Assembly: GCA_002269645.1 (NCBI GenBank)
Contig: NIVC01003246.1
Coordinates: 1 to 64,000, forward strand
Length of the DNA: 64,000 nucleotides
Reading direction: 5' to 3'
DNA from: Macrostomum lignano
Lineage: Eukaryota
Shown here: piece after piece, positions 1 through 45,960 of the stretch
How the letters are laid out: each line of letters begins with the position of its first letter
Numbering within the stretch: the first letter of the stretch is position 1
The notes under the pieces: generated by a model
What the model was told of the DNA's origin: nothing
The model's input: only the letters and a program-made list of their open reading frames with translations
The model's database searches: none
Translations under genes and position numbers: made by a program

Positions 1-113
1 AAGTGGATTCAAAGGCCCGCAATATTTATAGCCGGGAAGTGTCCAGCCTTGTTTGGACGAGGAAGCTTTTCTATCAGTCCATGTGAATCTATTTTACCAC
101 CAGAGCGTTGCAT
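1..113 (-). pseudogene. Parvovirus VP1u-type phospholipase A2 (PLA2X-like), 5' part; one frameshift; continues off the window edge
   Basis: ATG at 113 gives MQRSGGKIDSHGLIEKLPRPNK. A 1-nt shift then gives GWTLPGYKYCGPLNPL, resembling the parvoviral PLA2 Ca-loop (LPGYKYLGPGN). Confidence 0.8.
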
Positions 114-143
114 TATTTTATTTAAAATTTTCTTTTTAAATAT

Positions 144-1162
144 ATGACAGATCAGAAACTTAAAAAACTCTACTACAGCGACAAAGGATTTTTGTAGGCA
201 AAATCTGTTTAGTAAACTCATGGAGCTGAGTAAGAGCCAAAAGCTACAGTAGAAAAATGGCTCTCTAAGCAGGCTGTCTTTCAAGTCTATTTCCCACCAG
301 TAAAATTTGAAAGGCCCCATTTCAGTATATTATATAACTAATGAAGCGCACCAGCAGATCTTTTGTTCTCCCAACGACTCAGGCTACAAGTATGCTCTTA
401 CAATTATTACATTGCTTCCAGATATAAGGAAGCTCGCCCACTCAAGACGAAGAAGTCAGAGGTTGTTGCCAGCGCACTGCAAGATATTTATAAAAACTCT
501 CACTCACATACCCCAAATCTTTATGACCGACCCGGGTAAGGAATTCATGGGTGTAGTGAATCCCTTATGGAAAAGAAAAACACGAGATTCGCTATGGCAG
601 AACAAACTTGCACAGAGACTAGGCTTTTGTGGAAAGATTCAATCTAACTCTAGCAAGAGGCTATTCACTAAGCAGACAGCTGAAGAGCTGAAAAAAAAGT
701 GCGGACAATATACCAAGTGGTCAGACCGGCTCCCCACTGTTATAGAGCAACTGAACAATGAAGTCACACGTATGACTGGATTGAAACCATCCCATGCAAT
801 TAAACAAGACACTGTCAACTTAAGCACTCAAAGAACAGACAACAAACACTACAACCCCACACAACACACACAACACAAAACACACTCGAACTACCCTAAG
901 CTTCCAGGAGTTGAATCACCATACATACTGACAAACTCTGAGTTTCTACGCTTTTATATCTACCTGGAGAGCTAGAGAAGGACACAAAAGAAGAGCTACA
1001 GATCCATACTTCAGCCTGATGTACATATAAAATAGACAGACATTTTACCTCCGACTCGGTGACTATTACTTTTTATCTCAAGCCTTTAACCCTAAATCCC
1101 CCACGCGGTCATTCACTAGAGCTGAACTCCTAGTGATACCAGCTGACACAGAAATTAATTAA
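144..1162 (+). pseudogene. INT: Polinton retroviral-like (rve) integrase, with several frameshifts and a stop
   Basis: Pieced across frames: MTDQKLKKLYYSDKGF, EKWLSKQAVFQVYFPP, YKYALTII, ASRYKEARPLKTKKSEVVASALQDIYK, TDPGKEFMG, RLPTVIEQLNNEVTRMTGLKP, LPGELEKDTKRRATDPYFS, TRSFTRAELLVIPADTEIN*. Confidence 0.9.
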
Positions 1163-1177
1163 AATATTAAAAAAAAA

Positions 1178-1630
1178 ATGACAAAGATTGAAACCAGAAC
1201 CATCAATAAACTCAATAAAATCATTGAATCAAAGAAACCAGGTCTTATATCAATTAAAGGTATCAAAGTAAAAATCGATCCCACACAGCAAATAGTTCAT
1301 GTAATGAGCAAAGACACAGCATCACAGATGAAAAGTCAGGAGGAATCCTACCATTAGCAGCTCTTTATCCGATTATTGCAGGCGCTGTAAGTGCCGCAGG
1401 TGGTGTAGGGAGGTGTAGCAACTGCTGTTAAAGCTGGTAATGATAGAGCCCACCAGCTGAATTGCAAAAGATTGCAAGAGACAAAGGTATAACAATTAAG
1501 GCAGGAGATGGCTGCCCTGATTTTGATGATTGTGATGATTGTGAGCATGAAAATTCTGTAAGCAAGTCTGACATTGTCAAAGCAATCATGACACTGCACA
1601 ATGCTGGGTTTACAATAATGCGGATGTGAT
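1178..1630 (+). pseudogene. Small core/virion protein with an adenovirus pX(mu)-like GG-ILPL hydrophobic segment; frameshifted
   Basis: MTKIETRTINKLNK...MKS, then shifted frames give GGILPLAALYPIIAGAVSAAGGVG and GVATAVKAGND...AIMTLHNAGFTIMRM*. Compare adenovirus pX MRGGILPLLIPLIAAAIGAVPGIA. Confidence 0.6.
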
Positions 1631-1746
1631 GAGGTTTAAAACCCCACTTATCCAGCTTCATAAACCTAACTACTTATAGGATGTAGAAACAGTTCAACTT
1701 TCTATCAGGGTGGTCACCCTCAAAATTTTTTTTATTTAGAGAAAAA

Positions 1747-4700
1747 ATGCCAAAAGCTAATCCAGCAAAAGATTTAGTCAACAAATATTTTTCAAAAGGC
1801 GTCTCATTTCAAGACAAAAGTAATTCACTAAGAGAAGCATGCAAACAAAAGTTCAACACCGACCCTGGTCACCTGGGAAGCTATGAAAAACAGTTGGAAA
1901 TCATCAATCAATTAGAATCAACCAGTATGCGCCTATAAAAATTCTGCAAAGGAACACCAAGAGAGGAGTCGCAACTTAGTTAACAAATACGAAACTCTCA
2001 CTGGCGTGAAAAAGCAAAGTACCACAAAATAAGCAGGAACAAGAGAAATTAGAGCAATTAATCCATTTAAAAGAGTCGGAGCTTGCCACTGAAGAGATTA
2101 ATTTTGCACAGAGGAAGTTTACAGAACATTACATAGAGTACACAATCCCAATTAACGGCACAACGTACCACCGCAAATATCTACGACTATAAAGACAGCA
2201 TCCAATCAGTTGTTGATCACACACTCAAAACACGCAAGACTTTTAAACTACAGATATCATTCAAGATTGCGTTTTATATGCCTGCAAACCACTGAGCATC
2301 TCGAGTATTACATGACAACAAAGGCAAAGCCATTCACCCCTACAGACACACTGGATCCTTTCCTTCAAGATGTCACTAAGAAAATTGAAGCGTTTACATC
2401 CAGAGGTTCCGGATGGGTCGTAGAGGGATTCAAAGACAACTGTCATGGTCATGAAATATGACCCACTTAAAGCCTCCTCTTATATAGAGCTCCCACATAA
2501 GCTAGCCGGAAAAAAGCTTGCATAAATGTTAAAAATAAAGACAATTGCTGTGCTCTATGGGCAGTTTTTTCTGCACTTTTCATGATAGTGTCCTCACCAC
2601 CCCGAAAGAACCTCAAATTATCAAAATTATTTCAACTACTATCTCATCGAATGCGAAAAGAAGGGAATCAGGTTTGACAAAGGAGGCTTGGCGATCTCTC
2701 AGATCCCAAAGCTAGAAGAAGTGTTTAATAACAAAATTAGAATCACAGTCTTTGAATGGAGTGAAAAACTGAGAAAGTTCAACCGGTCAGATGTAGCAAA
2801 GACGTTTTAGATCCTGAGGGGAAAAGGCGGACTGAAGTGGATCTTCTAGTGATTGGTAATTTACTAGAGGAGGCTCACTATGTTTGGATTAAAGATCTTT
2901 CAAGACTCATTCACAAGCAGTTGAATAATCATCACGAGGCTGTTGCCATCTGCCGCTTGTGCCTTAAGCATTACAGTGGACCTGAACGCTTTGAAAAGCT
3001 AACAGAGCATGAATTATCATGCGAGGATCACCCGACAAACTGCTCTCTTCCTTCAGCTGAAGAGAAGTATCTCCGTTTTAAGAACTATCACAAGATGGAG
3101 AAGCTCCCATGTATATGCTGATTTCGAATGCTCAATCATGCCGGAAACACAAAAACAAACTCAAACTCAAAAAACAAACTCAAACTCAAAAACATGTCCC
3201 CAATTCAGTAGCATATGCCTTTATTACTACAAAAGGACTTGTTGAGTATAATATTTCTTTGGAGAGCAGTGTGTGGAGCAGTTTATTGCCAGAATGTTAG
3301 AGTTGCAAAAAGTGATTAGCACCCTTCAACCTGTTCCAATAATGATGACTGAGGAGGATGAAAGCAATTTCCTATCAGCAACTCATTGCCACATCTGCAG
3401 GAAACATTAACTTGCACTGATATTAAAAAACCCACCGTTAGGACCACTGCCACTTTACTGGGAAATTTAGAGGCGCGCGCATAACACCTGTAATCTAAAG
3501 CTAAAATCGAACATTCATGATCTAACGATATTTTGTCACAACGCAAAGAACTATGACATGCATTTAATAGTTGAAAAAATCGGCATGATTCCAGACATAC
3601 ACCTTGATTGCATCGCAGAGAACAAGGAGAAGTTTAAGTGTGTTGATATTAAACAGGATAATTCGGTAAAGGTGAAGGTTCGGGTACAGGTAAAATAAGA
3701 CTGAAGGATTCATATCAATTTCTAGCTGCCAGTCTAGACGAACTAAGCAAGAATCTAAAAGATGAACAATGTACATATACAAAGATGTTTGCAAGTAAAA
3801 TTAACAACAGTGATGAATCATTTAAACTTTTAAGAAAGAAAGGCTTCTACCCCTATGAAAATATTACTGGGTATCACGTATTTGAAGAGGTTTACCACCA
3901 CAAGAAAGTTCTTTTCAAACTAACAGACTCTGGAATCTCTGACAAAGACTATGAGCACGCGAAGCATGTCTATAATTACTTTAATTGTCAAAACTTCTTC
4001 CAGTATCACCTGCTTTACCTCTTCACAGATGTGTTTCTGCTGGCTGATGTGTTTGAAACCTTCAGATACACCTGGTACACAGCATATGGCCTCGATCCAG
4101 CACATTATGTGTCTCTGCCTGCCACTAGCTGGGAATCTTTGCTTAAAATGAAATGGGATCAAGATCCAGATTGGTACATTGAACTTCTTACAGACATTGA
4201 CATGTACAATTTTGTCGAATCGTCAAAGCGAGGGGGAATCTCAATTTGCGTTAACAGGTATGCAAAAGCAAACAATCCCTACATTGAATCTTACAATAAG
4301 GAGCAGCCCTCAAACTACATTACTTACTTGGACGCTAATAATCTCTACGGGTGGGCGATGAGTCAAGATCTTCCAGTTAGAGATTTTCGATGGCTACCCT
4401 CATCAGAACTAAAGTGGGACTTTTCATTGGCTGCCATTTATGAGTTGATGTTTACATTCCACCAGAGCTTCACGACTATTTCTCTGACTTTCCACCCTTC
4501 CCAGAGAACATCAAGTGCCCGAAAATAATCGAAACTCCCAATGATAATAATGGAACTTGGCGCTTGTCAGGAACAGAAAAAGAACATACAGAGAAACTAA
4601 CACAGAATCTAAACAACAAGACACGTTACAAAATTCATTACAAACTGCTTCAGTATTTTATCTCACTTGGTTGCAGGGTCACCAAAGTTCACAGGGCTCT

Positions 4701-5610
4701 TACATTTACAGAGGAAGCGTGGATGAAACCCTACATTGATAAGAACACCCAGTTTAGGACCAAAGCAACCAACGACTTTGACAAGAACCTCTTTAAGTTG
4801 GCCAACAACTCTGTCTATGGCAAGACTCTTGAGAATGAGCGGAAAAGAACAAACCTGAAACTTGTTACCTCATCAGAGCCTGCTGTTATTCAGGCAAATA
4901 TGTCAAAGCCAACATTCAAAGAACTCCATATCTTTAATAGCTACTTAGGTGTGATCATATTTTACAAAACCAAGGTGACGTTGCGCAAGCCGATCTATAC
5001 AGGTGTCACTGTTCTCGACGAATCAAAACGTTTGATGTACCAGTTCTTCTATGGCATGAAGCAGCAGTACAAGGATAAAATGAAACTCTTGTACACCGAC
5101 ACAGACAGTTTTATTATGGACATTCAAACAGCAGACATTTATCAGGACATGCTGCAGCAAAAAGATTTGTTTGACTTGTCTGAGTATGATGAATCTTGCA
5201 GGACGCTGAATGGTGATCAAGTGTTTGACGCTACTAACAAGAAAGTGATTGGGAAAATGAAGGACGAGATTGCTGGTGACATAATCACTGAATTCATTGG
5301 GTTGAGAGCAAAGTCCTATTTTGTAAAATGTGAGTCGTCAGACCCAATCAAAAAATCAAAGGGAATTCCGAAACGTGTAGTTAGGAAGGAAATTAATGAA
5401 GCTGAATACAGAGACGCCTTGAATTGCAACAAAAAGACATCACATGAGTTCTCAAAGCTACAATCTAAAAACCATATTATTCACACAATTCAGCAAAAGA
5501 AGATTGGACTGTCAGGTGCAGATAACAAGAGATTCATTTTTGATGACAATATCAACAGTCTACCGTTCGGGCATTGGAGGTTAGGTTTAGGAGGTGGATA
5601 TTGGGTTTAG
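1747..5610 (+). pseudogene. pPolB: Protein-primed family B DNA polymerase with N-terminal extension and endonuclease VII-like insert; multiple frameshifts
   Basis: Motifs in order: RGSGW, YDPLKASSYIELP, NVKNKDNCCALW, HYVWIKDLSRL, YADFE, CHIC...DHCHFTGKFRG..HNTCNL, FCHNAKNYD, KDSYQFLAASLD, FYPYE, YLDANNLYGWAM, KLANNSVYGK, YTDTDS, GKMKDE, GLRAKSY, KSKG, DNKR. Confidence 0.95.
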
Positions 5611-5643
5611 GTTTGAGAGAAAGTTTAATAAACCTCATAAAAA

Positions 5644-6045
5644 ATGACAACAAATAACTTTCTTGAAGATTTGGCTAACGAACTGGAAATCCCAAACTTT
5701 AGAGGAATATTTATGAGGGACACTCTGCCTGATTTTCCTCTAAGAAAAGAATGCGGCATCATGAACTTTGACACCACCGATAACCAGGATCTCATTGGGT
5801 TTGCTGGGTGATTGATCCCGATCGCAAGCACAAGTGTTATTACTTCGATAGCTATGGGACGGCAGTACCAGAAGAGCTAAGAAATTATATGAAGGGAAAA
5901 AATAATAAAAAAAAATTATCGCTCAGACTTTATTCTCCAAGGTCTTAGCAGTGATATTTGCGGTGAGCTGTGCATGACTGTTTTGTATGCAATGACCAAA
6001 ACACGAAAGACCTACAAGGAAATTATTCTTGGCTGTGTTTCATAG
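5644..6045 (+). pseudogene. PRO: Adenain-like cysteine protease (C5), about two frameshifts; absent from the ORF track
   Basis: MTTNNFLEDLANELEIPNFRGIFMRDTLP...ECGIMNFD, then GSHWVCW, YYFDSYGTAVPEEL, and LQGLSSDICGELC. His, Asp, Gln and Cys catalytic motifs are in the expected order. Confidence 0.9.
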
Positions 6046-6776
6046 GGTTCATTGTGTGTATTTCTCGTTGTCCTTCTTGCCGAATTTCTTGCCGACTTTC
6101 TTTCCACATAATGTTGAAGAACTTTCTCGAGTTCATTTCTCAGCTGACTCATGTCATCAGTACCGACCATGTTCAAGTTCATTCGAATTGATTGTTCATA
6201 AAGATCCTGAATGGTTTTGAACTCATCCTCTGAAATGAACTTATCCTCGATTGCCCTTGAAATGTACCCTATGATTGAAGTGTGCACCCCTGTCTCTTTT
6301 ACTTGCTTCTCCTGTAGCTGCTTTAGTTTTTTTCGCCTGTTTCGCGCTAATGCTCCAGTAATTGCTGAAATAAGTCCACATGCAGCACCCACAGAGCCGA
6401 GCGGGATTGCGATTGGGGCTGTGATGACTGGCAACACTGAGACAGCTGCAGCAGATCCAGATAGAACAGACACAGATCCTAGAATCATATTGCTGTAGTC
6501 GAAAAATTTACAGTGGTTGTCATAGCGCTTAATTTTCTTTGTGTTGTGGAAAATATTTTTTTCAAGATCATCGCGCATTTTTTGAATCTCCACCAGTCGA
6601 AACTGCTGAGAGTTACAAGTAATGACGGGGTAGAGTTTTTGTTGCTCATATTGAGGTGCATTCAGATTCGGTGCCAGGTTTTGTGTGTTCGAATTCGGTG
6701 CCATTGAGTTTGGTGCTGTCGGTATTTTAGGTTCAACGTATTGAGACTGATCGTATAGAGAATTTTGTTGGGCCAT
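6012..6776 (-). CDS. Polinton-type putative membrane protein (central hydrophobic hairpin flanked by helical regions)
   Basis: Open ORF; likely ATG at 6776 (AAAAAATG context). LYPV..FRLVEIQKMRDDLE, hydrophobic ILGSVSVLSGSAAAVSVLPVITAPIAIPLGSVGAACGLISAITGAL, basic RRKK, then ISRAIEDKFISEDEF. This pattern recalls conserved Polinton accessory proteins (from memory). Confidence 0.7.
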   Translation of the reverse strand: MAQQNSLYDQSQYVEPKIPTAPNSMAPNSNTQNLAPNLNAPQYEQQKLYPVITCNSQQFRLVEIQKMRDDLEKNIFHNTKKIKRYDNHCKFFDYSNMILGSVSVLSGSAAAVSVLPVITAPIAIPLGSVGAACGLISAITGALARNRRKKLKQLQEKQVKETGVHTSIIGYISRAIEDKFISEDEFKTIQDLYEQSIRMNLNMVGTDDMSQLRNELEKVLQHYVERKSARNSARRTTRNTHNEPYETQPRIISL

Positions 6777-6867
6777 TTTTTCTCTAGAAAAAATAAAAAA
6801 AATTATAAAACTATCCGGTTGAAAGATCTGTTTTCTTTTTGATAATTCCATCTGCACCGCCGGTTGT

Positions 6868-7687
6868 CTAGGCGGCTCTCGTGACGCCGGAGGATCGCGA
6901 GTCCAGCAGGCAGCGGCTGGGCGGCTGACGTTTGAGAGCGTGCCGGATTACTCCGGCGGGGTCCAGAGCTCCTTCTACTCGATCTGTAGACATGACCGGA
7001 CGAGCAGCAGATTCTGCTTCATCAATAGCAATGTCACGAAGATTGAGTGTTCTCTCCAGACGATCAAGCCTCCTTAGTATTTTACCCCAGGAGCTATACA
7101 TTCCGTTTAGATAGCTACTGTGTGATACATCCTTTCTCTTTAATGCTTCAAGTCTTTCTTTGATTCGATCATGCAACGATGTTGACTGAGTCATGAACTC
7201 TTCTAAATTATTGACTTTACCTGTAATGGTTGCGACGTTTTCTTTAATTCTATCATGCAACGCTGTTGACTGGTTCATGAACTCTTCTAAATTATTTACT
7301 TTAGCTGTGTTTGTGAAAACTCCTCCTTCAAGAATACGCATCCGTCTATCAGTGGAATTTCCCAGAAGATTAACTGATGATCTCAAGCCGTTGATTAGCG
7401 AGACTATCGAAGTTATTTCTGACCTAAGTTCATTAGTTGCGTTTAACAACGGCACATAAAGCTTATCACTGTCAAACTTCTGTTCTAGCTACTTTAAGCC
7501 TGAGATCTTCTATGTTTATCTGTAGCTGGTGCATGGAGCGCTCTAGGGCTTTCAGTCTGTTTTTATTCAGTTTGATCTCTGGGATCTTTTCGTCGCTGTT
7601 GATATATCGCCTGTCAAGTATGGATATTTGAGCTGATGTAAGAGCGCTGTTGCCAGAAATGGATTCACCTGCAAAGTTTATCGACAT
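6868..7687 (-). CDS. Coiled-coil orphan protein; probably one gene split by a 1-nt frameshift near 7485 (or two small ORFs)
   Basis: ORF 7472..7687 (MSINFAG...) abuts ORF 6868..7455. The downstream frame is open back to LEQKFDSDKLYVPLL at ~7487. Internal repeat KVNNLEEFMxQSTxLHDRIKE occurs twice. Confidence 0.55.
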
Positions 7688-7703
7688 CTTTTAATAGCAA
7701 ATT

Positions 7704-8504
7704 TTAAATTACAGTTCTTTTTTCTTTGCTGATAATCACAAACTGGTAAGGCTGATTCCACTTGTCATAGCAAAGATTAACGAATTCCTCTTGTGAAATC
7801 TTTCTGCTTGAGTTTTTTGTTGGATTTATGAAATAGGCAGGCGCAATGACCTCATTGTAAAATCTTTTTAACCTGTCCTGTGGAATGGTTGGAAACAGGA
7901 GAATCAGATTGCAGTTCCCGCGAATTGTTTTGTTCGGGAGCTCGAACCAATTCTGTGCAATGTAAATTACATTACAATTGTTATGTCGCCCTCTTGTAAA
8001 ATAGTTTTCTATCTGCTTCTGTGGGCCTGTCATACAATCATCAAAGACGATCAAATGCTTTCTCCCCTTTTCTAGCTCATCTGGTTGGGGTAGAAGTTTG
8101 GTCTTTGGATCAGCCTGTGGATCTCCATAGGTGAACACTTTAATGTTCTGCCATTTTTCATTGTCTTTGAGGTGCTTTGCATATTCGGCAGCTACAATTT
8201 CTGGGTTACTGGGAAGGCTCATTTGGTTATTAAAACATGCAATAATGTCCTCTTTGTTCAGCTTGTTTTGAAGCCCTGCAATCAGCATTCTATACTCATC
8301 TTGATACAGTGTGGGAGAGTAGATGTGCAGAGTGTCATAGTCGATAAATCCAGGTCTAAGAAGCATGTTAAAGACTCTGAATGTTTTACCTGAACCTGAC
8401 GAACCAACAACAATGCATCTGAAGTGACTCGGGATTGACTCATGATGAGAAAACTTAATCTGATTACGCGTCCAGTGAGGATTGAAGTCGTTTGAAAAGT
8501 CCAT
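7704..8504 (-). CDS. ATP: A32/FtsK-like genome packaging ATPase
   Basis: Walker A IVVGSSGSGKT, Walker B LIVFDD, and FTRGRHNNCNVIYIAQ signature. The likely start is MDFSN at 8504; the upstream MTHLSPK repeats are an artefact of the 21-bp array. Confidence 0.95.
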   Translation of the reverse strand: MDFSNDFNPHWTRNQIKFSHHESIPSHFRCIVVGSSGSGKTFRVFNMLLRPGFIDYDTLHIYSPTLYQDEYRMLIAGLQNKLNKEDIIACFNNQMSLPSNPEIVAAEYAKHLKDNEKWQNIKVFTYGDPQADPKTKLLPQPDELEKGRKHLIVFDDCMTGPQKQIENYFTRGRHNNCNVIYIAQNWFELPNKTIRGNCNLILLFPTIPQDRLKRFYNEVIAPAYFINPTKNSSRKISQEEFVNLCYDKWNQPYQFVIISKEKRTVI

Positions 8505-8542
8505 TTTTTCTATGATGAAAAAAAATTTAAATAATAAATAAT

Positions 8543-8794
8543 TTAGATGTGTCATTTCGGGACTTAGATGTGTCATTTCGGGACTTAGATGTGTCATTTT
8601 GGGACTTAGATGTGTCATTTTGGGACTTAGATGTGTCATTTTGGGACTTAGATGTGTCATTTTGGGACTTAGATGTGTCATTTTGGGACTTAGATGTGTC
8701 ATTTTGGGACTTAGATGTGTCATTTTGGTACTTAATTGTGTCATTTTGGGACTTAGATGTGTCATTTTGGGACTTAGATGTGTCATTTTGGGAC
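8543..8794. repeat. 12 x 21-bp tandem array (TTAGATGTGTCATTTTGGGAC) inside the virus
   Basis: Twelve head-to-tail units counted, few substitutions, no spacers. Confidence 0.97.
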
Positions 8795-8838
8795 TAGTCT
8801 TGTACCTTTACATTTCTTGTACCCTCGGAAAGTACCCT

Positions 8839-9216
8839 TTAGTCAAATTTGAAACCACTTCCTTTTTTAATGCTAGCTTTCATCTTCTCATAGACTGCAG
8901 GGTCCACACTGTCTGGGTTTGGGGCCAGCGGAGCCAGAGGTTGAATCTCTTGTTTAGGTGTTACAGTATCCTTTATCTTTTTGGCTGCTGTGGCTACACT
9001 GCCAGCCGCTTCGGCAACGTTCTTGATGTTCTCTTTGTTCTCTCCAATGACCTTAAAAATCTTGGCCCCCTGAGCGATCAAATCGGCAAGGCCATTCCCA
9101 GAGCGTTCTTTTCTTGGATAGTGGCCTGCAGGGAAAAGTCCAGATCCGCGTTTAATGAGATTAAGTTCCTCTTTGTCATAGTATTTGTCCACGTCTTTCT
9201 CAAAAATAATCGGCAT
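8839..9216 (-). CDS. Small basic/amphipathic virion-type protein with three GxG motifs
   Basis: ATG at 9216 (MPIIFEK), 125 aa. RGSGL, SGNGL and KGSGF motifs; amphipathic LADLIAQGAKIFKVIG segment. Confidence 0.7.
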   Translation of the reverse strand: MPIIFEKDVDKYYDKEELNLIKRGSGLFPAGHYPRKERSGNGLADLIAQGAKIFKVIGENKENIKNVAEAAGSVATAAKKIKDTVTPKQEIQPLAPLAPNPDSVDPAVYEKMKASIKKGSGFKFD

Positions 9217-9232
9217 CTTTTTAAATAGAAAT

Positions 9233-10438
9233 TTATTTTTTGTTAAACCGTGAAAGCAAAAGTTCTCTTGCTCTTTTATCGATATATTTTCTCTCAAGCA
9301 TTTTGTCCAGGATGTTGACAAATTCTTTTCTATTCTCGTCTTTCATTCCGGTCTTTGCCGCTCCTAGAAGAACAGCTAACCGCTTGTAGAATTCAGGCAT
9401 GCCTTTTCCGGAAGAGCTTGGAGGTGATTCGAATGATTGGTCAGAGGAGGAACTGTCATGTGGCGCTTGTCTTTGTTGAGGTGTGAATACTCTGTCATTG
9501 ATTCGCTTCATTCGTTCTGGGGAGAGCCGCTCTAATTGTCGCCAAGTATCAGGGTTTGTATCTTTGTACTGGGAAATCTCATTTGGCCCTGCTTTTTCAA
9601 GCGCTTCTAGTACTTGTTCGGGTGTGATTTGTTGCTGTGGCGGTGGAGGTTGTTGTGGTTGTGGTTGTGTTTGTGGTTGCTGCCGTTGTGGTTGTTGTAG
9701 TTGTTGTTTTGGTTGCTGCTGTTGTGGTTGCTGCTGTTGTGGCTGTGGTTGTTGTCTTATGACCTCTTCTTGATCTGGCAAACCAAACCATTGTTTAAAG
9801 TATTTGTATTTTCTAAACCTGTTCAAGTCAATCCTGTTTTCATGTAAAACTTTCAAAACACCGTTGTTCTTGAGAATGTCTATGTCCCTCTCTAAAGCGA
9901 AGGTAACCAGATCTCTATAATTCTTTAATTGCTTCTCGGATATTTTTTCCTGATTTTTAGTCATGTAGTCGAGTAAACTTTGAGTGAAGGGGATTCGTTT
10001 AGTTTCTGCGCCTTTATTGATTGAAATAGTTTCCTTCGTCACTTCAATGTTGTAATCCGCCGGTTCCCCGGTGATATTTTTTCGCCAGGCGCTAATTCCA
10101 AATATATATTTTCCATCATCCGTTACGGGGCCAAAAAAGTTATCCGTCACTTTCATCTGCACTGGTTGTCCTGGTTGCTGAGCCTGTGGTTGTCCCGGTG
10201 AAGATGGGATTTTACCCAATGTGTTTTGCAACTGGCTCTCTTGAATATCATCAATTGTTTCCTTCACAGTGTCGATGTTTTTCTTCGCTTCTGTGTATCC
10301 AGGTTTGTGAAATTCGGTGGCTGCTTGGACGAATTCATTGTAAGATTGTTGTTCTTTGTTGATTAGTCCGGTAACTCGTTTCTCTGCTTGCGCCAGCTTT
10401 TCTAGTTCAGAGATATGATATGAACTTTTCCGCTTCAT
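9233..10438 (-). CDS. Polinton PZ-like protein with Q/P-rich linker
   Basis: Intact 401-aa ORF. C-terminal GKG.PEFYKRLAVLLGAAKTG...EFVNILDKMLERKYI resembles the conserved helical tail of Polinton PZ proteins (from memory). Confidence 0.65.
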   Translation of the reverse strand: MKRKSSYHISELEKLAQAEKRVTGLINKEQQSYNEFVQAATEFHKPGYTEAKKNIDTVKETIDDIQESQLQNTLGKIPSSPGQPQAQQPGQPVQMKVTDNFFGPVTDDGKYIFGISAWRKNITGEPADYNIEVTKETISINKGAETKRIPFTQSLLDYMTKNQEKISEKQLKNYRDLVTFALERDIDILKNNGVLKVLHENRIDLNRFRKYKYFKQWFGLPDQEEVIRQQPQPQQQQPQQQQPKQQLQQPQRQQPQTQPQPQQPPPPQQQITPEQVLEALEKAGPNEISQYKDTNPDTWRQLERLSPERMKRINDRVFTPQQRQAPHDSSSSDQSFESPPSSSGKGMPEFYKRLAVLLGAAKTGMKDENRKEFVNILDKMLERKYIDKRARELLLSRFNKK

Positions 10439-10468
10439 TTCTTATTTTATTTTATTTTTAGTTAAAAA

Positions 10469-11755
10469 ATGAACGACCCACTGACACCAGTTTTCTACAA
10501 AATTAACAAGCCTATTTTGAGTGATGATAGCACAATCAAAGCGACACAAGTTAGAGTTCCGAGTCACGAGAACCAGAATGAAACTAATTTGGGTCCAGGT
10601 CAAACACTGACATTTACATACAATGGATGTTCGTCTCTGGTTAGTGTGCACAGTCTTAAGAGCGGCTTCCATATGACATTTCAATTCAAGACAAAGGGTG
10701 GTGCGGATGCGGCTCGTGCTAACGTTGACAAGCATGATGCGGATGTGGCTCTGATCAGTAACTTTTGGGCGTACATGTTCAAGGAGTTTAGTGTATCGAA
10801 TGGGAGCACAGAGTTGGAGCAAATCGCCAACTTTGGAATTGTCTATGACGCTCATTGTTTGATCGAGAATCCTGATTTTATTCAGTTGGGAAGTGGTGCG
10901 GGTTTTATTGCAGATGAAAAAGAAGGAGACATCAATGACAGTGGCTATAAAAAGAGGAAGAAGAGATACAACTATGCATTGCAAGGTGCTGATGATGCTG
11001 CTAAGAACCCACAGTATCGGTCTGTTGATGTATTTGTACCATTGAGATTCATGAGTGGATTCTGTAATACATTTAATCGACTGACTAGTAACTTTAGCTA
11101 CACCTTTAGGATGACTAGAGATGATCGCAGTAGAGTGTTGTGGACTGGGGCGGATCACACAAGGATGGAGGTGAAGCTAACCGGAATCGAGCTGTATTTG
11201 GAAGTCATTGAGCCAAAGACTGCACTAAAAGCAGACTATCTTAAGGCAATAGAGAAGGACATTGATGTTGCATACACAGCCTACATGTGTCGAGATGAGC
11301 GAAACGAAACTAGAACAAACATCTGCATTAAAGAGGGATCATGCAGCAATCCAAGGTATATCATTATTAATATGAGAAACCCAAATAGCATTATACGCTA
11401 TATGCATGGAGACGTGCGGTCCATTCAGCATGAAATCAGTGATAATCTTTACCCTGCACTGCCACAAAATGGAGATTTCAGTCAGAACAAGATTAGCAAA
11501 TTTTACAGCGAGTTGGTCGACTTGGTTGTGAAAGAGAACAATGGAATTGCTATCACTGCTCTTCAATATGGAACTCTATATCCGATGTTTGGCGCTGATG
11601 TGTCTGCCAGACAAATGCCTACTGATAACAGCCCTGTGAATATCGTGACTAACATTGAAAGGACTGCCGCAACACCCGTGGACCTGTACATTGTCTATGC
11701 ATTTGAGAGGAAGGTGAAGCTTAACATGATCAACAATTCATCCAGTAAAGTTTAA
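10469..11755 (+). CDS. MCP: Double jelly-roll major capsid protein
   Basis: Intact 428-aa beta-rich ORF. Polinton MCP-like segments SNFWAYMFKEF..ELEQI..FG, VPLRFMSGF, RMTRD, PRYIII, NLYP..NGDFSQN, YPMFGADVS. Lies directly upstream of the penton gene. Confidence 0.88.
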   Translation: MNDPLTPVFYKINKPILSDDSTIKATQVRVPSHENQNETNLGPGQTLTFTYNGCSSLVSVHSLKSGFHMTFQFKTKGGADAARANVDKHDADVALISNFWAYMFKEFSVSNGSTELEQIANFGIVYDAHCLIENPDFIQLGSGAGFIADEKEGDINDSGYKKRKKRYNYALQGADDAAKNPQYRSVDVFVPLRFMSGFCNTFNRLTSNFSYTFRMTRDDRSRVLWTGADHTRMEVKLTGIELYLEVIEPKTALKADYLKAIEKDIDVAYTAYMCRDERNETRTNICIKEGSCSNPRYIIINMRNPNSIIRYMHGDVRSIQHEISDNLYPALPQNGDFSQNKISKFYSELVDLVVKENNGIAITALQYGTLYPMFGADVSARQMPTDNSPVNIVTNIERTAATPVDLYIVYAFERKVKLNMINNSSSKV

Positions 11756-11775
11756 ATATTTTTTTAGGACAAAAA

Positions 11776-12639
11776 ATGGAAGCTATAGCCGAAAGACTAA
11801 ACAACATTGTTTCACACTCTAAGGAGAGCATTCCTATTACAATAACTGGTCGAATTAATGACTCAAACGGGATGTTTGTTGAAAAATTAGAGCAGGCGAT
11901 TCGCCTGGATCCAGGCGCTAATTACCATGTCTATCTTAACGACTTCACCGGTTGGTCAAACGTTCCTAATGTGATGGCAGCAAATAATAAGTTTTATTAC
12001 AAATGGAAAGGTGCAGCAGCAGACCCTGTGGTATTCCATGTGAGCACGCAAAGTGTGGATACCTACAATAACTTTCTAGAAAATGTCTTTACTAAGAGAG
12101 GCCATTTTGAGACACCTGATGCGAGTAAGCCAGAGAAGAAACTGTTCCCTGTCAAACTAACCTATGATCTCACTGTAATGAGAGTGGTCATGCAAGTTCA
12201 CAAAAATGCGGAGGTTGAGTTTAAAGATGACACTTGGTATAGGGAACTAGGATTCGAGAAGAAAGTTTATAAGGCAGAATCCGCGGCGCAGACCGCCACT
12301 CAAGCATCGGGGACCGTTAAAATGGCCCGGGAAAATGTAAGCGGTTTGTTCTTAGCACCCAATATTGCAGACATTGTAAAGGGTTTGAATATTCTAATCA
12401 GAAGCAATCTCAGTCTTGATTGGGTATTTAAGGGAAAGCGAACCAATATTTTGTACAACATCTCCAACTCTGTTGCTGGAGGACAGATGGTGGTAGAGAA
12501 ACCAAATCCAGTGAAAAGAGTTGTATTGAGTAATAAAGAGATTCACGAGATTGTGCTACAGTTTGAGACTGAAGATGGGATGGGCGTTGATTTTAATGGG
12601 GAGGAGTTTGTATTGACGTTGATCATTGAAAGAATGTAA
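11776..12639 (+). CDS. mCP: Minor capsid (penton) protein
   Basis: Intact 287 aa. AIRLDP..YHVYLNDF..SNVPNV..NNKFYY at the N-terminus; EKPNPV...IHEIVLQFETEDGMGVDFNGEEFVLTLII at the C-terminus. Confidence 0.88.
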   Translation: MEAIAERLNNIVSHSKESIPITITGRINDSNGMFVEKLEQAIRLDPGANYHVYLNDFTGWSNVPNVMAANNKFYYKWKGAAADPVVFHVSTQSVDTYNNFLENVFTKRGHFETPDASKPEKKLFPVKLTYDLTVMRVVMQVHKNAEVEFKDDTWYRELGFEKKVYKAESAAQTATQASGTVKMARENVSGLFLAPNIADIVKGLNILIRSNLSLDWVFKGKRTNILYNISNSVAGGQMVVEKPNPVKRVVLSNKEIHEIVLQFETEDGMGVDFNGEEFVLTLIIERM

Positions 12640-12643
12640 GAAA

Positions 12644-12883
12644 TCACAATTGTCTAATGATTTCTACAAAGTTATAGTAGCTGTCGTAATCTTTTACATA
12701 GGTTACTCCATACTTATGAAACCAGTGTCTTTGGAGAGCTAGATTAATATTAGGGACATTGATATCAACGTCGGGCCAATATTTTCTCATGTACTCGCTG
12801 CATTCAAGTTTGCATCGGTACTTGGATTTGTAATTAGGCTCGTGCGCTTTGTAATAAGAACCCGGAGAGACAACTGGAAACAT
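12644..12883 (-). CDS. Small Tyr/Lys-rich orphan ORF (79 aa)
   Basis: ATG at 12883 in AAAAATG context like other viral genes. Converges on the penton stop. Confidence 0.5.
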   Translation of the reverse strand: MFPVVSPGSYYKAHEPNYKSKYRCKLECSEYMRKYWPDVDINVPNINLALQRHWFHKYGVTYVKDYDSYYNFVEIIRQL

Positions 12884-13120
12884 TTTTAGAGAAAATTTAA
12901 TTTTTTTTTTCAAAGGGTAAGGACCCTGGGTTAGGGGATTCAAAGTCTTTGGGATGCGTAGCGAATTGCGAATTGAATGTGGGCCCCATGGGGAGAAGAA
13001 TGCAGATTATTTTCTGATTGTTTCGAAGATGCTATGGGTGGATGTTGGTGGATTATGTCTGTGTCAGTGAGCATAACAAGTGTCCACAGTGAGCATAACA
13101 GGTATCAGTGGACACCTGCT

Positions 13121-13335
13121 CTGATTCTGTCAGGGATAATATAGATGGATTTAATGGGATTATGTTCGAAGTTTTCGGAGCAAGTGCGGCCCCTCCCCTT
13201 TTTCATGATTCTGTCAGGGATAATATGGATGGATTTAATGGGATTATGGAGGACGTTTTGTGAGCGAGTGCGACCCCCCCTTTTTTCTGATTCTGTCAGG
13301 GATAATATGGATGGATTTAATGGGATTATGGAGGA
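13121..13335. repeat. Three ~83-bp direct repeats near the right end of the virus
   Basis: TGATTCTGTCAGGGATAATAT(A/G)GATGGATTTAATGGGATTATG starts at 13122, 13206 and 13288, separated by variable segments. Confidence 0.9.
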
Positions 13336-13761
13336 TGTGAAAAATTTTGTCCCAGAAGCCCCCTCATGCCTTCTACTTACAGCTGATCTATTGGTTGCAT
13401 ATTTGGCCCTATTGTGGTAGGTGTAATCAATTATTATTATTATTATTATTATTATAACTGTAAATAATGAATAATGACTAGACATAGCAAACAGTGTCTA
13501 AATTATCTCTAGAGGAGTCATTTCACAGAGCAAAATATCCGTAAGCCTCTACTTTCAGTAAATATAAAACTCTGTTTCTATCCCAGCTACCTGCCCCTCA
13601 GCCAATCAAAGCCCGTTTACGCACTCTCTGCACTCATTGCATGGGCCTGGAGCGGATTTGAACCGAGCTACAGGAGAGGATTAGAGATAGAAAGATCCCC
13701 AGGGCCTCCGAGCTTGAAGCATTCGGGCGCACCGCAGCTGCACAGTTGACACAGCGAAGCA

Positions 13762-16700
13762 ATGAGCGCTGAACTTCCCGCCGCCATTGACGTGACGGCC
13801 TGGCGCGGCGCCCGGGTGCTGTTCTACCACGAGCCCCTGGCCGCCTACCTGCCCGGCCAGCTGGTGGCCTTCACTCCCGGCAACCAGCGAGCCGTTGTTG
13901 AAGTCGAAGAGCGCCTGGCCAGCAGCCTCGGCCTGGTGGTCACCGACTATCGCTCGGTGAAGCTCAAGCTGAAGAGCCCCAGCTTGGCTGCTGGCGACGC
14001 CGGTTCCGGTCTCTCCAGCCGGCAGTTCCGCGTCCCCATCGAGGAGGTCGTGAGCGACGCCGCGCCGCAGCTCAGCCAGCTGGTCGAGGGCCAACTCGCC
14101 TGCGCCCAACTGCCGCAGGACCAGCTGGCCGACGGTGTGTACCGCTCAGTCACCGTTGACGGCCTGTCCGCGGCCGCCCAGCCCGCTGTGACCGTGCGGC
14201 TGAGCTCCGGCCAGCTGGCGCCGGTGCACCGCTCCCAGCTCCGGCTGCTGCGCCCGCCCTGGCAGGACGAGCTGGACGCCGCTGCCGCCGCCGCTGCTGC
14301 TGAAGTCGCCGCTGCCGCTCCTGCTGCCGCGACCACCGAGTCGACTGCCACCACGGCGTCCGCCTCCGACACCGTTGACGATTTGTCCTCACCGCCGCCG
14401 GGACTGGAAGATGAAGATGAGTCTGGTGAGTCTGCTACTGAAATTCTTTCGGCCGTAATCTTTCTCTTAAAGCTCTTCCATCTGCAGCTTCCGCTCTCCC
14501 ATCCGCAGCTTCCGCTCTCCCATCTGCAGCTTCCACTCTCCCATCTGCAGCTTCCGCTCTCTCATCTGCAGCTTCCGCTCTCCCATCTTCAGCTTCCACT
14601 CTCCCATCTGCAGCTTCCGCTCTCCCATCTGCAGCTTCCACTCTCCCATCTGCAGCTTCCGCTCTCCCATCTGCAGCTTCCACTCTCCCATCTGCAGCTT
14701 CCGCTCTCCCATCTTCAGCTTCCGCTCTCCCATCTACAGCTTCCGCTCTCCCATCTGCAGCTTCCACTCTCCCATCTGCAGCTTCCGCTCTCTAATCTGC
14801 AGCTTCCGCTCTCCCATCTTCAGCTTCCACTCTCCCATCTGCAGCTTCCGCTCTCCCATCTGCAGCTTCCACTCTCTTATCTGCAGCTTCCGCTCTCTTA
14901 TCCGCAGCTTCCACTCTCCAATCTGCAGCTTCCGCTCTCTAATCTGCAGCTTCCGCTCTCCCACCTGCAGCTTCCACTCTCTCATCTGCAGCTTCCGCTC
15001 TCTTATCCGCAGCTTCCACTCTCCCATCTGCAGCTTCCGCTCTCTTATCTGCAGCTTCCGCTCTCCCACCTGCAGCTTCCACTCTCCCATCTGCAGCTTC
15101 CGCTCTCTTATCTGCAGCTTCCGCTCTCCCATCTGCAGCTTCGGTTCCCCCTCTCTGCTACTTCTTAAACCAATCGAAACAATTCCGACAAAGTCACGAG
15201 AGCGGTGCTGCAGTCACTTTCATCCTCACTATAACAGGCTGCCTCATCGTCTTTGACAAAAACTCTTTTTTGAGATGCAGCCCTGCCGGGAACTGGGCTT
15301 GCAGTCGGTCAGGGCCCGGGGTGTCGGTTTACACATTGCCGGCCTGCGAATCTGCCCATTTGGCTGCGACAATTATCGATATTTGCTCCACAGATGAGCC
15401 CTGCTTCTCTTTACAATCTCTTTTATCTTCTTTCGGAGCAATAGCAGCAATTTTCAATCGCTGGCTTTTGGAGGGGGTTGGGGAAAATCTGTTGCAGCTG
15501 GGGCCGCTTCTTTGAGCCGCCGGGATTTCTGCTGCCGGATTCCATTCTGCTTCTTTTCATGAATGGGGCGAAATCAACAAAATTGCCCCAGTGTGTCTCA
15601 GCCAGGCCCTGCGCTGGCATTTGAGCACAGTGGGGGTCCCCCGCCTTTTCCCTGTCCCACTAGTTATGCTGCGATGCTCGCTCAGGTTCAGATTCGCTCA
15701 GGGCGTGCAGTTGACAGTCGGTGGAAGATAGACTTGATTCCACTGGTTGCTTAAGCGGGCGGAAATGACTGCCTAGTTTGAGCAGGAATCAGGCCCCTAT
15801 TTCATATTCTCCACCTGCTTGGGAGTAGCGGGAGGGTAATCAAATTAATAGATAAGCTGCCGAGCTCCAGGCCTGTTGCCTATAAATAGAAATTCGAGAT
15901 AAACAACCAGACTTTCGGGGCTGAGTGTCCGGTGATTCATTTCTGAAGAATTGCTTTCGTGTGCTTAATCAGTATTCACAGATCAGGACTTTCTAGGTGG
16001 GTTTGGATTTACCATCAGTAGCCTAATGGCTTTCGGGATCAGTAGCCTAATGGCTTTCGGGATCAGTAGCCTAATGGGATTCGGGATCAGTAGCCTAATG
16101 GGATTCGGGATCAGTAGCCTAATGGCTTTCGGGATCAGTAGCCTAATGGGATTCGGGATCAGTAGCCTAATGGGATTTGGGATCAGTAGCCTAATGGGAT
16201 TCGGGATCAGTAGCCTAATGGGATTTGGGATCAGTAGCCTAATGGGATTTGGGATCAGTAGCCTAATGGGATTCGGGATCAGTAGCCTAATGGGATTTGG
16301 GATCAGTAGCCTAATGGGATTCGGGATCAGTAGCCTAATGGCTTTCGGGATCAGTAGCCTACGGGATTTGGGATCAGTAGCCTAATGGGATTCGGGATCA
16401 GTAGCCTAATGGCTTTCGGGATCAGTAGCCTATGGGATTTGGGATCAGTAGCCTAATGGGATTCGGGATCAGTAGCCTAATGGCTTTCGGGATCAGTAGC
16501 CTATGGGATTTGGGATCAGTAGCCTAATGGGATTCGGGATCAGTAGCCTAATGGTATTTGGGATCAGTAGCCTAATGGCTTTCGGGATCAGTAGCCTATG
16601 GGATTTGGGATCAGTAGCCTAATGGGATTCGGGATCAGTAGCCTAATGGGATTCGGGATCAGTAGCCTAATGGTATTTGGGATCAGTAGCCTAATGGGAT

Positions 16701-19700
16701 TCAGAATCAGTAGCCTAATGGGATTTGGGATCAGTAGCCTAATGAGATTTGGGATCAGTAGCCTAATTGGATTTGGGATCAGTAGCCTAATGAGATTTGG
16801 AATCAGTAGCCTAATGGGATTTGGGATCAGTAGCCTAATGAGATTTGGAATCAGTAGCCTAATGGGATTTGGGATCAGTAGCCTAATGGGATTTGGGATC
16901 AGTAGCCTAATCGGATTTGGGATCAGTAGCCTAATGGGATTTGGGATCAGTAGCCTAATGGTATTTGGTATCAGTAGCCTAATGGGATTTGGTATCAGTA
17001 GCCTAATGGGATTCGGGATCAGTAGCCTAATGGGATTTGGGATCAGTGGCCTAATGGCTTTCGGGATCAGTAGCCTATGGGATTGGGGATCAGTAGCCTA
17101 ATGGCTTTCGGGATCAGTAGCCTATGGGATTCGGTATCAGTAGCCTAATGGGATTTGGGATCAGTAGCCTAATGGGATTGAGGATCAGTAGCCTAATGTG
17201 ATTTGGGATCAGTAGCCTAATGTGATTTAGGATCAGTAGCCTAATGGGATTTGGGATCAGGAGCCTAATGGGATTTGGGATCAGTAGCCTAATAAGATTT
17301 GGGATCAGTAGCTTAATGGGATTTGGGATCAGTAGCCTAATGGGATTGGCTTTTTCAAAGTCCTTGAGGGGAAGAAAATCCCATCTAAGCAATATTATAT
17401 AATTTGCGCCATCCGCCCGCAGACTGCGACCCGCAGCTGGCCTCGGGCCGGTTCAGCAAAGGTGACGTCGTCCGGACTCCGGGCGGGGTGAAGAAGAAAT
17501 TCAACGGCAAGCAGTGGCGCCGGCTGTGCAGCGCCGACGGCTGCTCAAAGGAGAGTCAGCGAAGGGGCTTCTGTTCCAGGCATCTCAGCCAGAAAGGAAA
17601 AGCATCCAAGTGAGTGTGACCGGTTATGACAGGTCTGGGAAGAATATCCCAATCTTATTAGGCTACTGATCCCGAATCCAATTAGGCTACTTATCCCAAA
17701 TCCAATTAGGCTACTGATCCTCAATCCCATTAGGCTACTGATCCCAAATCCCATTAGGCTACTGATCCCAAATCCCATTAGGCTACTGATCCCAAATCCC
17801 ATCAGGCTACTGATCCCGAAAGCCATTAGGCTACTGATCCCAAATCCCATTAGGCTACTGATCCCGAAAGCCATTAGGCTACTGATCCTCAATCCCATTA
17901 GGCTACTGATCCCGAATCCCATTAGGCTACTGATCCCAAATGCCATCAGGCTACTGATCCCAAATCCCATTAGGCTACTGATCCCAAATCCCATTAGGCT
18001 ACTGATCCCAAATTCCATCAGGCTACTGATCCCAAATCCCATTAGGCTACTGATCCCAAATCCGATTAGGCTCCTGATCCCAAATCCCATGAGGCTACTG
18101 ATCCCAAATCCTATAAGGCTACTGATCCCAAATCCCATTAGGCTACTGATCCCAAATCACATTAGGCCACTGATCCCAAATCCCATTAGGCTACTGATCC
18201 CAATCCCATTGGGCTACTGATCCCAAATCTCCTTAGGCTACTGATCCCTAAATCCCATTAGGCTACTGATCCCAAATCCAATTGGGCTACTGATCCCAAA
18301 TCCCATTAGGCTACTGATCCCAAATCCCATTAGGCTACTGATCCCAAATCACATTAGGCTACTGATCCCAAATCCCATTAGGCTACTGATCCCAAATCCC
18401 ATCAAGCTACTGATCCCGAAAGCCATTAGGCTACTGATCCCAAATCACATTAGGCTACTGATCCCAAATCACATTAGGCTACTGATCCCAAATCCCACTA
18501 GGCTACTGATCCCAAATCCCATTAGGCTACTGATCCCAAATCCCAGTAGGCTACTGATCCCAAATCACATTAGGCTACTGATCCCAAATTCAATTGGGCT
18601 ACTGATCCCAAATCCCATTAGGCTACTGATCCCAAATCACATTAGGCTACTGATCCCAAATCCCACTAGGCTACTGATCCCAAATCCCATTAGGCTACTG
18701 ATCCCAAATCACATTAGGCTACTGATCCCAAATCCCACTAGGCTACTGATCCCAAATCCCATTAGGCTACTGATCCCAAATCACATTAGGCTACTGATCC
18801 CAAATCCCACTAGGCTACTGATCCCAAATCCCATTAGGCTACTGATCCGAAATCCCGATCCCTACCGCAGCGGAGCCCTTCTTGGCTTTTGCAGCGCTAC
18901 TTAAGCTTTCAGCAAGGATTTTCAGCAAGCCTGTTTGGAATTTTCCAGATACCAGCGCCCTTTGGAGCCCTGGGCGCCTGGCGTGCCTCCTGCTGCCGCT
19001 GCGCCAGCCGCACCGGTTGCACCTGCAGCCTTTTTTGCTACCGGCTACTCCACTTTTGCTCCAGCCTCCGTTGTTACACCGTTGTCTTCTGCTTTTAGTC
19101 TGCAACTGCATCACCAGCAGCAGCAGCCTCATCCGTCCTGCACCAGCCTGCTGCCCATTCTGGAGTCTGAGCTCAAGCGCGATCCCAGCCAATCGGTGCT
19201 TCATCAAGACCAGCTGCCAGCCGTAGCCACCGCCGGCGCACTTGATGGACCGGCAGCTCGGCCAGCGGCTGCCAGCGAGTCGGACACCGCGGCTGAGGCT
19301 GCCCCAACTGTTGGCTCTGCTGCTATGGAAGATGAAGACGACGTGTTCCAGCTGCCGGAGAGGCCGCAGCGAGATGCTCCTCAGGCGGACAAGTCCCAGC
19401 AGCAGCAGCAGCCGGAGCACATTCGCCGCCCCATGAACGCCTTCATCCTGTTCAGCAAGCGGAATCGAGCTCGCGTCCAGGAGGAGAATCCCGGCCTGGA
19501 TAACCGCGCCGTCAGCAAGATCCTCGGCGAGCTGTGGTACAACCTGTCCAAGGTGGACAGGGAGCAGTACAACAGCCTGGCCAGCCAGGTCAAGTCCGAG
19601 CACTTCCGCCAGAATCCCAACTTCCGCTGGTCGTCCGCTAAGGAGCGCCGACGGTCCGACTCAGCCTCTGCCGCTGTCACTCAGCCGCTTCATCATCAGA

Positions 19701-20008
19701 TCGGTGGCGCTGCAGCCAGCAACGGCAGCGACAGCAACCTCCGTCTGCTGGCGGACGCCGCGGTGGCTCATCAGGCCGCTCAGGCGTCGCCGGGGTTGCC
19801 GCCGACTTTGCAGCGACAGCAGCAACAGCCGCCGCGTCCGCCTCCGCTGCAGCCGACTGTGTCGAAGTTTCGTCGACTATCGGAGCATCTGCAGCAGCAA
19901 GGATTTCAGCGCTACTCAACAAGCAGCAGCGGAGGCGCAGTTCTGGTTCCAACCACGGTGCAGCCCAGCCTGCTCAGCATCAGCGACCAGCACAGCCAGC
20001 ACCAGAGT

Positions 20009-20039
<31 letters not shown>

Positions 20040-29547: not shown

Positions 29548-40921
<11,374 letters not shown>

Positions 40922-42842: not shown

Positions 42843-45960
<3,118 letters not shown>

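Follow-up and report, generated by a model that had tools for sequence, protein, structure and literature searches.

We analysed the first 64,000 nucleotides of contig NIVC01003246.1 of the flatworm Macrostomum lignano (assembly GCA_002269645.1, forward strand), a stretch hereafter called the window. Its positions 1–13,377 are probably the right part, 13.4 kb in length, of a Polinton (also called Maverick or adintovirus; Polintoviricetes) that has integrated just upstream of a capicua-like gene of the host. This block has a GC content of 40%, against 65–69% in the adjoining host exons, and the stretch 1–12,883 holds 13 compact intronless genes that cover ∼94% of it. Six of eight Polinton features are present, namely a DNA polymerase B of the protein-primed type (pPolB), a retrovirus-like (rve) integrase, a double-jelly-roll major capsid protein (MCP), a single-jelly-roll penton, an A32 ATPase and an adenovirus-type protease. 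As assembled, the PLA2, integrase, pX, pPolB, protease and fibre-like genes are interrupted by frame changes, and the MCP and penton genes are unbroken. To judge from the pattern of these breaks, the frameshifts of the left arm are likely to be mostly long-read consensus errors rather than decay.

An earlier, sequence-only reading of this DNA had proposed at least 13 compact genes, including integrase, pPolB, adenain, ATPase, MCP, penton, PLA2 and pX, in a near-complete Polinton or adintovirus. Each of the named genes was tested and found supported, and the results of family, homologue and structure searches with the hallmark genes bear out the identity of the element. The term near-complete is apt for the gene content; it goes too far in that the window does not reach the left end and the assembled sequence breaks six of the genes.

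Gene content and gene order

The genes of the element, together with one intergenic repeat, are the following (ORF, open reading frame; aa, amino acids).

1–113 (−): start of a parvovirus-type PLA2-like gene that continues beyond the left edge of the window; a single frame change near 60–70, AT-rich gene-start motif at 113
143–1162 (+): retrovirus-like (rve) integrase in ∼12 frame pieces; possible in-frame stop at 620–622 (by eye)
1178–1629 (+): core protein with an adenovirus pX-like segment, in pieces; gene-start motif at 1178
1747–5610 (+): pPolB, ∼1,290 codons with at least 15 frameshifts
5644–6045 (+): adenain-type cysteine protease, in three frame pieces
6012–6776 (−): 254-aa protein with a long central hydrophobic stretch (hydropathy peak 1.89); open frame
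6868–7687 (−): coiled-coil fibre-like gene with an internal 84-bp duplication (repeat 7155–7308) and one frame change near 7,490
7704–8504 (−): A32/FtsK-type packaging ATPase; open frame, gene-start motif at 8504
8543–8795: intergenic 21-bp minisatellite in 12 copies, which falsely lengthens the ATPase ORF
8839–9216 (−): protein of 125 aa; three Gly-x-Gly sites, the second of which is followed by a possible amphipathic helix
9233–10438 (−): protein of 401 aa, helical at its ends and containing a Gln/Pro linker, a candidate core protein; open frame
10469–11755 (+): double-jelly-roll MCP, 428 aa; unbroken
11776–12639 (+): single-jelly-roll penton, 287 aa; unbroken
12644–12883 (−): 79-aa orphan ORF with a gene-start motif

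On the left, the PLA2-like gene (minus strand, cut by the window edge) is followed by integrase, pX gene, pPolB and protease, all four on the plus strand. The middle is occupied by the 254-aa ORF, the fibre-like gene, the ATPase, the 125-aa ORF and the 401-aa ORF, all on the minus strand, and on the right the plus-strand MCP and penton precede the minus-strand 79-aa ORF. A strict pattern of AT-rich leader plus ATG was found at eight sites in the element, every one a called gene start, and at four in the other 50.6 kb; the remaining gene starts have similar AT-rich leaders by eye. The CpG observed/expected ratio is 0.39–0.61 in the left arm, and in the right arm it is 0.67–0.92 in seven of eight bins and 0.31 in one.

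To assign the genes, a Pfam scan was run on 34 ORF pieces, in which the DJR-like, Adeno_PX and C48/C57 matches fell below the curated cut-offs. About 37 codons of the PLA2-like gene are inside the window and its C-terminus lies outside; bases 1–60 (minus strand) match positions 1–16 of PF08398 (E 4.6e-4, below the cut-off), and parvovirus capsid proteins make up all 32 PDB matches at E ≤ 10 (best E 0.014). The integrase displays its D, D and E motifs across frames (by eye), and its only two PDB matches are both integrases, albeit weak ones (E 0.054–0.19); Pfam rve did not match the pieces. A 103-aa minus-strand ORF at 9–320 was set aside, being mostly antisense to the integrase. The pX gene matches Adeno_PX over 1258–1428 (E 1.1e-4), and the protease, whose His, Asp, Gln and Cys motifs are recognizable by eye, matches Peptidase_C48/C57 weakly (E 0.011–0.017).

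The start of pPolB was placed at 1747 on account of its AT-rich leader. One fragment matches PF03175 (DNA_pol_B_2) at E 9e-8, the palm fragment has no match, and OTU Cys and His motifs are visible. We take the domains of this protein to be a vOTU, an exonuclease with an HNH-like insert and a palm, naming them from motifs seen by eye. A homologue search retrieved 598 homologues among 3,639 candidates, the best 120 of the 598 being 40–46% identical over the C-terminal part. Two of these best 120 carry names, from the sea slug Elysia marginata and the coral Oculina patagonica. Moreover, tblastn blocks are collinear over 2,117–5,595, with repeated frame switches. Judged by these homologues, the polymerase is of the ordinary invertebrate type.

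The ATPase matches Pox_A32 above the curated cut-off (E 3.6e-6) and a PHROG terminase family (E 1.5e-7, the only named match in PHROGs for the element), and its Walker A and B motifs are visible; a PDB sequence search with it gave nothing meaningful. A longer, 360-aa version of the ATPase ORF with MTHLSPK repeats was rejected as read-through of the minisatellite. The 21-bp period of this minisatellite falls in the same class as the host intron arrays and could signal residence in the genome, yet no copy of the repeat occurs elsewhere in the window. Neither the element nor its right end has a second copy there.

For the accessory genes, identification is more tentative. The Atlas look-alikes of the 254-aa ORF (0.93) are unnamed clusters with mollusc and viral members, at a recognition below threshold, which is a weak resemblance; a gasdermin match is absent in Pfam and PDB, and the PDB sequence search returned nothing informative. 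This ORF may resemble the adintovirus gene labelled GasderminX, a likeness that Atlas, Pfam and PDB checks did not confirm. The fibre-like gene gave weak coiled-coil-type matches and no others in Pfam and NCBIfam; a fibre role may be suggested for it, the label itself being a resemblance that these matches did not confirm. The helix moment of the 125-aa protein (0.57) was equalled in 18 of 300 shuffles, a borderline result, and Pfam, PHROGs and NCBIfam gave no family match. It is a candidate protease-processed core or membrane protein, possibly Cupiennin-like, a likeness that the amphipathic-helix and NCBIfam checks did not confirm. The sole match of the 401-aa protein, DUF1104 at E 1.1e-4, is probably spurious, and this protein may be PZ-like. 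All four of these ORFs (254 aa, 125 aa, 401 aa and coiled-coil) may have counterparts among the accessory genes that recur in Polintons. The 79-aa ORF has no family match in Pfam, PHROGs or NCBIfam, and no homologue search was made with it. NCBIfam yielded spurious coiled-coil or ParC matches for two of ten ORFs and nothing else. To call several genes orphans, as was done at first, is an overstatement in the light of the mollusc and viral clusters that the 254-aa ORF weakly resembles and of these possible accessory-gene counterparts.

The capsid genes and their relatives

The MCP matches PF21738 (DJR-like) at E 4e-5. In a fold search, its best match is the faustovirus MCP (Z 11.7, root-mean-square deviation (rmsd) 6.2, 305 aligned), capsid or scaffold proteins of the double-jelly-roll type fill the first 13 rows, and a viral library agrees. 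An Atlas search offered a weak lead, unnamed clusters with recognition under threshold. The penton, modelled with a pLDDT score of 76 (predicted local distance difference test), has structural matches in a capsid chain of PBCV-1 (Z 12.8, rmsd 3.1, 131 aligned), in the penton of mavirus (Z 12.4, rmsd 10.1, 236 aligned) and in a chain of Sputnik (Z 11.6); in the viral structure library, it matches minor capsid proteins. At ∼12,270–12,340, the penton has a 22-residue loop insertion that is absent in most relatives and modelled with low confidence.

The MCP search found nine homologues among 4,065 candidates, all of them unnamed proteins on contigs <4 kb, seven being 70–77% and two 42–44% identical. 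With the penton, 13 homologues were found among 482 candidates (12 at 55–64% identity and one at 38%). An MCP profile search extended the set to 537 proteins at E ≤ 0.001, and 21 of the 23 distant relatives tested match PF21738. In a FastTree tree of the 98 rows, out of 159, that measure 380–520 aa, the MCP of the window falls in a six-row clade (support 100) nested in a nine-row clade (support 99, stem 0.57). Outside this nine-row clade, the best full-length identity is 22–27%, in keeping with the divergent capsids noted in the sequence-only reading. One 157-aa protein (P0132) is 96–97% identical in two blocks to the MCP at 10,775–11,749, with most of its second half missing. Near-identical siblings of the element thus exist, and this one is, as far as the alignment tells, an internally deleted sibling. 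As to the suggested intact or active relatives in the genome, close relatives exist, and the one at 96–97% is internally deleted.

The capsid sub-lineage is probably undescribed, to go by these comparisons. A literature search found no described Macrostomum Polinton family and no mention of this capsid family, although preprint supplements and Repbase may hold one. The broader proposal of an undescribed lineage can stand for the capsid sub-lineage at best, as flatworm Polintons are already tabulated (PMC10748475).

Pattern of the frame breaks

To map the breaks in pPolB, we used a profile of 40 of the 120 homologues listed. Breaks lie near 2432, 2506, 2597, 2767, 3113, 3183, 3257, 3406, 3441, 3476, 3679, 3891, 3908, 3919 and 4446. 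The profile alignment gave 15–16 frameshifts and no stop over ∼1,000 codons at two penalty settings, and five single homologues each gave 12–14 frameshifts and no stop. Net single-base losses account for 11 of the 15 breaks. By eye, there are ∼12 frame changes in the integrase, ∼3 in pX, two in the protease and one each in the PLA2 and fibre-like genes. Against profiles of seven and 11 relatives, respectively, MCP and penton have none.

The breaks are unevenly distributed. Within pPolB, 14 of 15 are located in 2,345–3,950, in the earlier half of what could be aligned (p 4.5e-4), and the 2,145 bp of MCP and penton are free of them (p 7.5e-4); runs of at least four identical bases are about equally common in the clean arm. 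Columns conserved at ≥90% are matched in 89 of 109 cases in the broken part of pPolB versus 162 of 200 in the clean part. The two parts thus match conserved columns equally, which indicates no extra substitution load in the broken one. Since ∼4–5% of single substitutions in the pPolB frames would create a stop, neutral decay with 15 frameshifts predicts 2.7–13.5 stops at 0.25–0.05 frameshifting indels per substitution, and the probability of seeing none ranges from 0.067 to 1e-6 across these ratios.

If the frameshifts were real, the element would be a truly decayed provirus, a dead fossil. Six genes are indeed interrupted, an internally deleted sibling exists, the CpG ratio is mostly lower in the left arm than in the right, and most vertebrate Mavericks are degraded (PMC8097293). 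However, 15 frameshifts came without a stop, conserved residues are not further eroded, and the gradient from left to right is steep, whereas neutral decay should strike both arms alike. We therefore regard decay as unlikely. A different account of the same gradient is co-option by the host, in which the copying arm decayed and selection kept the capsid arm, which might then serve near capicua to form particles, for instance, or in defence. Such an account would agree with breaks that lie almost wholly to the left and with MCP and penton genes that are free of them. However, the gradient lies within pPolB itself, the virion genes of the left side (pX, protease and PLA2) are broken as well, no stops were found, and the candidate terminal repeat is kept, so that we give co-option hardly any credence.

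Consensus error fits better than decay with 15 frameshifts without a stop, with the absence of conserved-residue loss and with intact MCP and penton genes. Damage that consists of frameshifts only and clusters on the left would be the usual pattern of a thinly covered long-read consensus, such as may arise where a contig ends within a long repeat. Many base errors and a limited base accuracy have been described for long-read Macrostomum assemblies (PMC5730564). If the frameshifts are mostly consensus errors, the real insertion is probably recent and largely undamaged. The close relatives at 96–97% and 70–77% identity were counted among the evidence for the reading as a whole.

Several points weigh against this picture of an integrated Polinton with mostly artefactual breaks. 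The choice between error and decay was drawn from the assembled sequence alone. Penalties that strongly favour stops turn the pPolB alignment into ten frameshifts plus three stops, the integrase has a possible true stop at 620–622 (by eye), and the breaks of integrase, pX and protease were read by eye, close homologues being lacking. The ratios of 0.25–0.05 used for neutral decay are assumed values. The left end, the paired repeat and the target-site duplication fall beyond the window, and the MCP was modelled with low confidence (pLDDT 53). Finally, that the polymerase belongs to the Beta class is a probable assignment.

Candidate right end, junction and host flank

The last gene is followed by a non-coding stretch of 490 bp, and the junction with the host comprises the following features.

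12884–13377: candidate right terminal repeat, with an 84-bp unit repeated 2.6 times at 13,120–13,335
13,373–13,377: candidate right end CTACT; the following 6 bp (13,378–13,383) are a candidate target-site duplication
13762–14460 (+): host capicua-like N-terminal exon, in the flank outside the element (DUF4819, E 6e-12), 385 bp from the candidate end

On the minus strand, the candidate end reads AGTAGA, which agrees at five of six positions with the (AGT)2 end motif given in PMC8097293. As CTACT occurs twice in 12,800–13,800, this end is a candidate and unproven. Inverted terminal repeats that end in the AG..CT manner and a target-site duplication of 6 bp are the other two of the eight Polinton features, and the window offers the candidates listed above for them.

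The block could also have been joined to the capicua locus by a chimeric assembly, or stem from a contaminant, that is, a co-sequenced organism or a free virus. The sharp GC step and the signs of low sequence accuracy in the viral block would suit such an origin, and contaminant adintovirus contigs have been described by Starrett et al. (PMC8502044). However, the window contains no N and the breaks are far from the join, which comes directly after a terminal-repeat-like stretch and an end-like motif. Moreover, an integrase–polymerase spacing like the present one is found in 8 of 78 tabulated M. lignano rows, and when the MCP alignment was run against the genomes of bacteria and archaea, 60 pattern matches and no confirmed relative came out. 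We consider a chimera or contaminant very unlikely.

The capicua-like gene extends over 13,762–21,131 (+), with the DUF4819 exon, an HMG-box exon (19,325–20,836; capicua-like HMG box at E 5e-19) and a C1-like end. Its introns consist of 21- and 24-bp minisatellites, and the 24-bp arrays at 16,014–17,347 and 17,646–18,856 are inverted copies of each other. The host DNA in general has GC-rich exons, and introns filled with 20–25-bp minisatellites, a makeup in line with Macrostomum; simple and tandem repeats were reported to make up 15% in Macrostomum (PMC5730564). Further to the right, the window contains the following.

26,528–27,083 (−): gag fragment of a copia-type long terminal repeat (LTR) retrotransposon (Retrotran_gag_2, E 8.5e-9)
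∼29,550–39,440 (−): Cys-loop ligand-gated ion channel gene (Neur_chan_LBD, Neur_chan_memb), split by long minisatellite introns
43,940–46,160 (+): gene with an ALK/LTK-type glycine-rich domain (E 2.4e-6)
50,316–51,781 (−): PAQR/HlyIII-family membrane protein, two exons around a 21-bp minisatellite intron
55,549–62,856 (−): chromatin gene with a SAMD1-type winged helix, a PHD finger and a SAM domain

Proposed life cycle and significance

By analogy with its family, the rve integrase would have inserted a linear genome and produced a 6-bp duplication (PMC8502044, PMC11071308). After excision, the TP-vOTU-exonuclease-palm pPolB would copy the element by protein priming from the terminal repeats, and the A32 ATPase, driven by ATP, would pack the DNA into a shell of MCP and penton. 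Maturation would involve cleavage of core proteins at Gly-rich sites by the protease, for which the Gly-x-Gly sites of the 125-aa and 401-aa proteins are candidates. PLA2 and the hydrophobic proteins may aid entry through membranes, again as in the family.

It is conceivable, though we hold it doubtful, that all breaks are artefacts and that the element is intact, recent and able to form particles, and belongs to a polintovirus lineage of genus rank, as yet undescribed, in free-living flatworms, combining a common invertebrate polymerase, a capsid 22–27% identical outside its clade and a mixture of Alpha-type (PLA2) and Beta-type accessories. If this were true, the element would lie 385 bp from capicua in a model animal of the laboratory, in which one could look for natural particles. 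A recent preprint states that virions or free linear genomes have been observed for no Maverick-Polinton (bioRxiv 10.64898/2026.06.19.733378). As no Polinton virion has been seen so far, a search could begin with any element that is young and intact and sits in an animal that can be cultured. The element contributes a clade of divergent capsids and a possibly mixed set of accessory genes, and it leaves the picture of the class unchanged, as many model animals are known to carry intact Polintons and flatworm copies are listed by the hundred. It also teaches that frameshift-only damage that fades along a contig needs a read check before one speaks of a fossil. Should the insertion be real, one capicua copy may be affected.

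Comparison with known systems

The nearest named group is Betadintovirus (Eupolintoviridae, Amphintovirales, Polintoviricetes), with the Beta adintoviruses (PMC8502044). The element shares with the latter an integrase, an OTU-bearing pPolB weakly matched by PF03175, an adenain, an FtsK/A32 ATPase, a hexon, a penton and a pX-like segment. For their GasderminX and Cupiennin genes, it has candidates at 6,012–6,776 and 8,839–9,216. Unlike the Beta adintoviruses, it carries a PLA2-like gene, which is typical of Alpha virion modules (PMC8502044), and its pX is a gene of its own after the integrase. PLA2X of Alphadintovirus is a PLA2 domain with a C-terminal pX; of the PLA2-like gene, the window holds the start, and a separate pX gene is present. 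The Beta criterion is a divergent OTU-PolB that is <30% identical to the PF03175 type and groups with the Terrapene reference (PMC8502044), and by this definition of Starrett et al. the polymerase leans towards Beta. A further Beta criterion is a hexon and penton that cluster with proteins of the Terrapene class; the MCP relatives retrieved are all unnamed. PLA2 is said to be common in ‘group 2’ (bioRxiv 10.64898/2026.06.19.733378), and module swaps have already been described (PMC8502044; bioRxiv 10.64898/2026.06.19.733378). Given a PLA2 that is typical of Alpha and common in ‘group 2’ beside a Beta-leaning polymerase, the accessory set may be mixed.

Two assemblies are of interest for the comparison within flatworms, NIVC01 (M. 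lignano Mlig_3_7) and a second one, which is probably of M. lignano too. Supplementary Tables 2 and 3 of Jeong et al. 2023 (PMC10748475) give 748 integrase-linked pPolBs in 8 of 73 flatworm genomes, 78 rows of the table belonging to NIVC01 and 175 to the second assembly. In 8 of the 78 NIVC01 rows, the integrase ORF ends 0.48–0.94 kb before pPolB (by eye), compared with 585 bp in the element, and three rows of the second flatworm assembly have gaps of 582–598 bp and pPolBs of 1,275–1,281 aa. This likeness is one of layout only, the table being without sequences, capsid data or integrase strand. Embedded Polinton insertions in flatworms were also reported in a 2026 preprint (10.1101/2025.04.19.649669), and flatworm terms are absent from one supplement file of PMC8502044.

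In a sequence search, the MCP had no named relative, and the adintovirus or MELD rows of its fold search are ∼10% identical. The pPolB is close to those of the mollusc and coral Polintons (Elysia marginata, Oculina patagonica), whereas the capsid proteins are without comparably close named relatives. This difference between capsids and polymerase suggests either that divergence went further in the virion module or that its history was another one.

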